Of a stretch of 64,000 nt of DNA, positions 21,862-21,900 are shown in pieces. Source of the DNA: Plasmodiophora brassicae (lineage: Eukaryota); NCBI GenBank assembly GCA_036867785.1, contig CP145413.1, positions 806,001 to 870,000 on the forward strand, given 5' to 3'. A model generated the notes under the pieces. The model had not been told where the DNA came from, did not search any database, and saw only the letters and a list, made by a program, of their open reading frames with translations. The position numbers and the translations under genes were made by a program. Position 1 is the stretch's first letter. Each line of letters opens with the position of its first letter.

Positions 21862-21900
21862 GTTACCGTGACATACGTATATCTGTATGTCACCGGTAAC
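21862..21900. other. Candidate tyrosine-recombinase core site (inverted arms with 8-bp asymmetric spacer)
   Basis: GTTACCGTGACATAC-GTATATCT-GTATGTCACCGGTAAC; copies at 22406-22444 (inverted) and 23471-23509. The palindrome is certain; its function is inferred. Confidence 0.45.

Follow-up and report, generated by a model that had tools for sequence, protein, structure and literature searches.

Genomic context of the locus

The window (the whole 64,000-nt stretch of DNA analysed here) is eukaryotic nuclear DNA of ~60% G+C. Its host genes include an uninterrupted 4628-aa dynein heavy chain, a cyclic-nucleotide-gated channel, a class II aminoacyl-tRNA synthetase of the Asp/Lys/Asn type (called AspRS), and BRCT and SET-domain genes. 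Over 88% of its length, the SET-domain ORF (46845-48047) shares 98% identity with PBRA_006121 of Plasmodiophora brassicae; because of this match we dropped a trypanosomatid TATE element, a candidate that the G+C content and the length of the intronless dynein gene had suggested. A virus or phage origin was likewise rejected, since a megablast of 21100-23900 against a phage collection came back empty and the gene content is eukaryotic.

The features between the left neighbourhood and the host gene on the right are as follows.

16181-16198, minus orientation: single (eighth) copy of the tail motif, reading CGGTACCGTTGGACAACG on the plus strand (alignment)
16358-19222, plus strand: tyrosine recombinase gene, four exons, 884 aa when spliced (alignment, intron reading)
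19360-21234, plus strand: RecQ-family SF2 helicase gene (Pfam DEAD, Helicase_C)
21324-21790, plus strand: three tandem repeats of ~153-164 nt, directly after the helicase stop codon (repeat search)
21818-22075, both orientations: array of seven copies of a ~17-bp motif, cgttGTCCAAag.tacc (motif search)
23822-24648, minus strand: host gene for the mitochondrial-type ribosomal protein uL13 (uL13m), at least three exons (database matches)

To the left lie a host gene of the 2Fe-2S thioredoxin-like (NuoE) type (14611-15321, minus strand) and then a miniature element (15632-16121), and these two place the left end of the recombinase element in 16128-16357. The repeat pair 15629-16126 and 10332-10986 was considered as the left end itself and rejected, being a separate miniature element with its own termini. 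This miniature inverted-repeat element is present in two copies, at 15632-16121 (~490 bp) and 10335-10984 (~650 bp), with 13-bp terminal inverted repeats (CTATGGAATTGTT and AACAATTCCATAG), 6-bp flanking duplications (CCATGA and TGATGC), and an internal 9/6/9 palindrome, GTGTAAAATACATGTATTTTACAC; one of the copies directly precedes the recombinase element.

On the right, the assignment of uL13m depends on the exon at 24109-24270, which matches uL13/uL13m chains at E = 2e-12, and on weak Pfam L13 matches of two other exons. Between this gene and the next is a 440-bp fold-back palindrome (24825-25265), whose 158-nt arms are 94% complementary (85% over 449 nt) and which contains CCTGTCCAAGATATC, a sequence resembling the tail motif.

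Elsewhere in the window, the AspRS gene has an intron at 13519-13563 (45 nt, GT-AG, with an in-frame stop) that splits the table-11 ORFs 12481-13560 and 13576-14535. Two tandem paralogous 340-aa ORFs (6368-7390 and 8509-9531), without a Pfam family, are 95% identical over their first 300 nt and similar upstream. A solitary 5S rRNA gene (46693-46813, 82.6 bits) precedes the SET-domain gene by 31 nt. Periodic repeats of 15 nt occur in two ORFs (44828-45353, extensin-like, plus strand; 62090-62269, Gly/His-rich, minus strand), and two intergenic 83-nt direct repeats, 120 nt apart and 86% identical, are found at 42458-42660.

The recombinase gene

Seven stop-to-stop reading frames on the plus strand (16349-21234) were assigned to two genes, the first of which encodes the recombinase. 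A tblastn alignment of the paralogue P0003 to the DNA breaks into three pieces over 16946-19207; the reading frame changes twice and is interrupted once by a stop. Such interruptions would suggest a decayed pseudogene, a reading that we rejected because three GT-AG introns (17410-17474, 17707-17781, and 18320-18389; 65, 75, and 70 nt, respectively) restore a single frame. We judged the element's introns against the AspRS intron, with its GTATGG donor and CTGAC branch-like motif, and each of the three has a GTAYG donor and a CTGAC or CTGAG branch-like motif as in that host intron. Removing them raises the alignment score to P0003, and the spliced reading has no internal stops. By its reading frame, the gene appears intact. 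Upstream of it, 85-115 nt before the start codon, a run of ~17 G followed by CCGGGGGGGCCGGG (16243-16275) could be a G-quadruplex-prone promoter region or a tract that is difficult to sequence.

The predicted protein begins with a weak SAP-like match, followed by a core-binding (SAM-like) domain, the catalytic domain, and a conserved C-terminal extension. The Pfam matches within it are weak ones to Phage_int_SAM_5 and SAP, and the Phage_integrase family gives no match on the window exons at E ≤ 0.01; among 19 relatives, five match that family below its gathering score (best 21.6 bits vs. 27.1; best E-value 1.6e-5). R (in GRASE), K (in SRSK), HSFRRG, RGGW, and Y (in LEY) share alignment columns with 10 relatives, and R, S.R.G, RG.W, and Y are invariant among the 19. 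With R, K, HxxR, W, and Y all present, the predicted protein is, on its residues, a member of the tyrosine recombinase superfamily, as the preliminary description had proposed for the gene upstream of the palindrome.

An exhaustive HMMER search with the catalytic exon against 1.84 billion representatives yielded 125 proteins at E ≤ 0.001 and one at E ≤ 1e-30. The only close relative is P0003, a P. brassicae 'core-binding domain-containing protein' of 699 aa that is 57% identical on the catalytic part; a word-indexed search with P0003 recovered P0003 alone (one of 8000 candidates scored). The recombinase and helicase proteins of the window are themselves absent from the protein databases searched. 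Language-model look-alikes of P0003 comprise oomycete and diatom hypothetical proteins and fungal NDC10_II/GCR1_C proteins, which we treat as a lead only.

The evidence on fold comes from the paralogue and not from the window protein: an AlphaFold model of P0003 was built on the alignment of its relatives (pLDDT 80.7). A Foldseek search with this model placed Cre chains first; there were 20 matches at E ≤ 0.001 (best 9e-5), and those listed are all Cre or its variant Tre. Across 290-343 aligned columns that span both domains, TM by target is 0.5-0.6 and identity in the structural alignment is ~16%-20%. Below Cre come Xer, Tn1549 Int, and Flp, the last at ranks 38-47. A profile of the 19 relatives also matches Cre/Tre weakly (E 0.009-0.03). 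In the model, P0003 thus has the predicted two-domain Cre/Int fold.

The helicase gene

The second gene encodes a RecQ-family helicase whose best solved relatives are Escherichia coli RecQ, WRN, RECQ5, and BLM; the pairing of a recombinase with a following helicase gene in the preliminary description therefore stands. When the helicase exon was compared with longer proteins, two distant RecQ-like proteins were found. The frame of this gene changes twice, and GT-AG introns could span both changes (candidates 19745-19802 and 20352-20410); the gene could also be defective.

Across the seven reading-frame pieces of the element, Pfam detects only SAM-like, DEAD, ResIII, and Helicase_C, with no reverse transcriptase and no DDE transposase. 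Judged by this gene content, the element resembles Cryptons, the recombinase being the only integration enzyme found.

The motif array and the palindrome

Beyond the helicase gene and its tandem repeats lies the motif array, with plus-oriented copies at 21822, 21846, 21855, 22055, and 22067 and minus-oriented copies at 21934 and 21959. The hexamer GTCCAA/TTGGAC occurs six times in 21800-22081 (282 nt), vs. 0.12 expected for that length at its frequency in the remainder of the window, and the array is ~50-fold enriched over background. The sequence TGTCCAAAG has 24 matches in the window, 17 of which fall in the three copies of this 282-bp stretch. The center, ACATACGTATATCTGTATGT, is 70% A+T amid DNA of ~60% G+C.

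The eighth copy of the motif lies at the opposite end of the gene pair, 160 nt upstream of the recombinase start codon. It is identical to 21926-21943 at 16 of 18 positions in direct orientation, a score equalled in one of 300 shuffles. With motif copies at both ends of the gene pair, recombinase, helicase, and tail appear tied together, and we infer that they form a two-gene Crypton-like mobile unit of ~6 kb, a unity based on adjacency and this one 16/18 match.

The palindrome stands within the array, and its features are given below.

21868-21893, plus orientation: core palindrome, copy 1 (9/8/9 pattern match)
22413-22438, minus orientation: core palindrome, copy 2, with the spacer inverted (pattern match)
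23477-23502, plus orientation: core palindrome, copy 3 (pattern match)
21855-21868 and 21926-21939: outer inverted pair, GTCCAAAGTTACCG and CGGTAACTTTGGAC, 14 bp, 100% complementary (repeat search)
22023-22034, minus orientation: inverted partial copy, half of the spacer plus an arm, TATCTGTATGAC (12-mer search)

Copy 1 consists of a left arm, GTGACATAC (21868-21876), a spacer, GTATATCT (21877-21884), and a right arm, GTATGTCAC (21885-21893). The 8-bp spacer is asymmetric and not self-complementary. Allowing one bulged G on the right, the arms lengthen to 15/16 bp, GTTACCGTGACATAC (21862-21876) and GTATGTCACCGGTAAC (21885-21900), and these extended arms are themselves built from the TTACC end of the motif. 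The outer pair (21855-21939) encloses the core palindrome together with a 32-nt asymmetric insert. The core palindrome lies in a convergent intergenic region, 633 nt past the helicase stop; three motif copies stand to its left and four to its right, the motif continuing to 22075. By this arrangement the tail has the architecture of a putative protein-binding region, whose parts to the left and right of the palindrome would both belong to the element.

The earlier reading of this site from the letters holds in its structural particulars: the perfect 9-bp inverted arms with their bulged extension to ~15 bp and asymmetric 8-bp spacer, the larger inverted pair around them (14 bp and perfect), and the three copies, of which the one at 22413 is inverted relative to those at 21868 and 23477. 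The 26-mer pattern matches exactly three times in the 64-kb window, and the site is identical in all three. These copies are not independent, being parts of one recent rearrangement with 99.7% identity over 925 nt. The partial copy TATCTGTATGAC lies 131 nt from the site, with 47 nt between it and the point where the repeated block ends; 0.32 matches to such a search are expected across the whole window.

How unusual is the structure? Inverted repeats with 9-bp arms and a 6- to 8-bp spacer occur seven times in the window, at three independent loci, vs. a mean of 1.27 and a maximum of five in 60 simulated first-order Markov sequences. The bare 9/8/9 palindrome is within chance for the window; the nested structure, the hexamer enrichment, and the inverted 12-mer are beyond it. 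Folded as single-stranded DNA, 21840-21950 has an energy of -26.4 kcal/mol vs. -13.2 ± 2.5 for shuffles (z = -5.2; none of 200 as good). Rfam, tRNA, and bacterial promoter and terminator scans have no match at the palindrome.

An inverted triplication of the element tail

The three copies of the site are carried by a set of repeated segments.

21157-22081, plus orientation: block U, copy 1, with the last 25 helicase codons and stop and the whole tail (self-BLAST)
22082-22249, plus orientation: segment c, an inverted duplicate of 23691-23860 (self-BLAST)
22250-22762, minus orientation: inverted copy of 21544-22081, in which one 25-nt motif unit is absent (self-BLAST, alignment)
22763-23690, plus orientation: block U, copy 3, with a 3-nt insertion, followed by c' at 23691-23860

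The two direct copies of block U (21157-22081 and 22763-23690) are 99.7% identical by self-BLAST; across the three, the differences are the 25-nt motif unit missing in copy 2 and the 3 extra nucleotides in copy 3. Segment c and the TA at 22080-22081 together make up the final 12 codons and the stop of uL13m. Since c' holds the same codons and stop and runs on without a break into the remainder of that gene, we take the c' arrangement to be ancestral.

Self-BLAST and alignment show only two new junctions. At 22081|22082, a TA microhomology (22080-22081) is common to both partners and host uL13m coding sequence is cut; at 22762|22763, the inverted second tandem repeat is joined 25 codons before the helicase stop, and no microhomology is readable. 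What had been called a triplication is a 1.6-kb duplication-inverted triplication-duplication. It agrees with the DUP-TRP/INV-DUP pattern produced by template switching and described in the human-genetics literature in its inverted middle copy, its triplicated core (21544-22081), its flanks (the direct duplicate 21157-21543 and the inverted duplicate c), and its two novel junctions with 0-2 nt of microhomology. It differs in size, 1.6 kb here vs. tens to hundreds of kilobases.

Site-specific recombination would need paired binding sites and a shared 6- to 8-bp overlap at the junctions. The junctions here are 188-869 bp from the site copies (nearest 188 nt from copy 1, 324 from copy 2, and 714 from copy 3), and this distance, with the 0-2 nt of microhomology, argues for template switching or an assembly chimera rather than site-specific recombination. 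In the model that we favor, synthesis would have followed the ancestral sequence to 22081, continued on the reverse complement of the stretch from ancestral 21544 to the end of c', and resumed on the ancestral sequence from 21157. Replication template switching would then have made all three site copies in one event, separately from the recombinase.

We consider it quite unlikely that the triplication (as distinct from the palindrome) is an artefact of assembly or of whole-genome amplification and that the organism has a single copy of the site. Strand-displacement amplification typically yields inverted chimeras with a short offset, as do some long-read artefacts, and P. brassicae is reported not to be culturable axenically. 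Set against this, the copies differ by the 25-nt unit and the 3-nt indel, and the offset at the junction is 168 nt, which is not a perfect fold-back.

The ancestral arrangement also limits the right end of the element, which lies between 21235 and the end of block U plus 131 nt, the latter being the 3′ region of uL13m before its stop codon; the uL13m stop codon thus sets the outer limit.

What the palindrome may be

The explanation that we place first, tentatively and with somewhat less than even confidence, is that the palindrome is a core-type, lox/FRT-like site of the element's putative Cre-fold recombinase, internal to the element and flanked by accessory motifs. Its geometry fits the enzyme class, the adjacent enzyme appears intact, and the motifs link both ends of the element. 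Tyrosine recombinases typically use inverted repeats of 11-13 bp that are 6-8 bp apart, according to the part of PMC3212892 available, and the simple target geometry suggested in the preliminary description is supported by the 9/8/9 layout with its 8-bp asymmetric spacer. A recombinase monomer would sit on each of the inverted GTGACATAC arms, and the two would carry out strand exchange over the spacer, with the flanking ~17-bp GTCCAAAG motifs serving as accessory or arm-type binding sites; binding, cleavage at the site, and the role of the motifs are what we infer from this layout. An internal site of this kind might be used once the element has been excised as a circle, or else for resolution or inversion, and would not be the present junction of element and host. 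Several observations weigh against a core site: The three copies amount to one event, the bare palindrome is within chance, Phage_integrase scores fall below the Pfam cut-off, the fold is that of the paralogue, the helicase is possibly defective, and the locus is prone to slippage and template switching, as seen in its tandem repeats, the loss of a 25-nt unit, and the triplication.

The last of these observations leads to a different account, in which the palindrome has no function and arose in passing, through the same slippage and template-switch mutations that gave the tail its form. Slippage and template switching can create functionless palindromes, and the same 1 kb holds the three tandem ~155-nt repeats, the 25-nt unit change, the 3-nt indel, and the 1.6-kb inverted triplication. 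Two further loci in the window have bare 9/8/9 palindromes, and the 32-nt insert interrupts what may once have been a longer perfect palindrome. We regard this account as unlikely while giving it appreciable weight: The motif array is strongly nonrandom and is echoed at the element's opposite end, the arms are perfect where decaying sequence would be expected to gather mismatches, and the geometry fits the class of the adjacent enzyme. The preliminary description had gone further than a core site and taken the palindrome as the att site that joins element to chromosome, so that the element would end in the spacer with host or target DNA to its right. The lox-like geometry and the adjacent recombinase on which that claim drew are borne out, and no more than 319 nt separate the site from the outermost possible right end (188 nt as far as 22081 and then the 131 nt of the uL13m 3′ region). 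The position at an element end is not: The palindrome is intact, whereas an integrated element should carry split half-sites; element-type motifs run 188 bp beyond it, and those on the right match the copy before the recombinase. Nor is there a left half-site, since in the possible 5′ boundary zone (15322-16357) we find none of nine arm matches (at most one mismatch) and none of seven 12-mer spacer-arm matches. A break of homology inside the spacer, which had been put forward as a sign of such a junction, is not seen among the three in-window copies, where homology runs at least 188 nt past the site, a weak test given that these copies are segmental. The intact palindrome, the motifs on its far side, and the missing left half-site make an att junction improbable.

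About equally doubtful is a protein-binding array without strand exchange, whether an iteron and AT-rich unwinding origin of an episome or an STB-like partition or regulatory array. Eight motif copies in both orientations, a 70% A+T center, adjoining tandem repeats, and an encoded helicase would all suit such an array. Yet Pfam finds no initiator or partition gene among the element's reading frames, an episome is without supporting evidence, and RecQ-family helicases are not known to act as replication initiators.

Comparison with known systems

A core-type site can be compared with two well-characterized pairs of enzyme and target. Cre acts on a simple site without host factors, and loxP of phage P1, like the site described here, has two inverted arms around an asymmetric 8-bp spacer. 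The modelled fold of P0003 matches Cre best, and the W of RGGW stands at the position of the Cre tryptophan in HxxR...W...Y. The differences are in the arms (9 bp perfect, or 15/16 with the bulge, rather than 13), in the array of a second motif around the site, and in the protein, which at 884 aa has a weak SAP-like N-terminus and a long C-terminal extension, is encoded with introns, and comes from a eukaryotic host; the site here is known from sequence alone.

The FRT and STB features of the yeast 2-micron plasmid offer a second parallel: a eukaryotic tyrosine recombinase (Flp), a site with an 8-bp spacer and repeated elements beside the core, and a position within long inverted repeats, with tandem repeats nearby. 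The structural match to Flp is much weaker than that to Cre, however, and the inverted repeats here are a recent rearrangement that includes host coding sequence, in an element that is chromosomal.

Cryptons, and in particular the CryptonS elements of oomycetes and diatoms, share with this element a tyrosine recombinase as the sole recombinase, the absence of a detected reverse transcriptase, and a conserved C-terminal region. In the part of PMC3212892 available, they are reported from fungi, animals, oomycetes, and a diatom, with 4- to 6-bp terminal direct repeats and with no internal palindromic or lox-like site reported. The element of P. brassicae differs in its putatively internal palindrome and its RecQ-like helicase. 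The word 'helicase' does not occur in that Crypton paper, and the accessible part of PMC3627910 mentions a RecQ helicase only for Academ transposons; no report of a Crypton that carries either a RecQ helicase or a lox-like site in its interior emerged from our literature searches. In the main text of two P. brassicae genome papers, the terms recombinase, Crypton, DIRS, and helicase have no occurrences. Near the possible ends of the element, we could see by eye no convincing pair of TATGG termini as in CryptonS.

Implications

It is rather unlikely, though worth stating, that the locus holds an intact and possibly active member of an undescribed Crypton-like branch that combines a Cre-fold recombinase, a RecQ helicase, a lox-like 9/8/9 site, and arm-type motifs. 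Were this so, its recombinase would be the first of the Crypton type in a eukaryote to have an identifiable target site. Crypton-type recombination sites in eukaryotes are essentially undefined, and published accounts end at short terminal direct repeats; if the palindrome is the enzyme's substrate, it would provide a concrete and cheaply testable eukaryotic pair of enzyme and site, the first example of an element of this type with a RecQ helicase, and a structural-variation marker in P. brassicae. If it is not, what is left is an ordinary finding, a clean small-scale template-switch inverted triplication beside a palindrome-rich tail.

Recombination among the three site copies, which the preliminary description took to permit excision or inversion, is possible in principle. 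Given an active enzyme, exchange between copies 1 and 3, which are in direct orientation and 1609 bp apart, would bring back the single copy of the ancestral state and set free a circle, and exchange of copy 2 with either neighbor would invert the interval between them. The three copies would then be a live substrate for recombinase-driven deletion and inversion in the clubroot pathogen.

The rearrangement has also made a near-perfect inverted repeat of 21544-22762, with arms of ~515-540 nt and a 168-nt loop that contains the 3′ coding end of uL13m. Transcription reading through from the helicase gene could possibly produce a long hairpin RNA, a source of small RNAs against both the element and uL13m.
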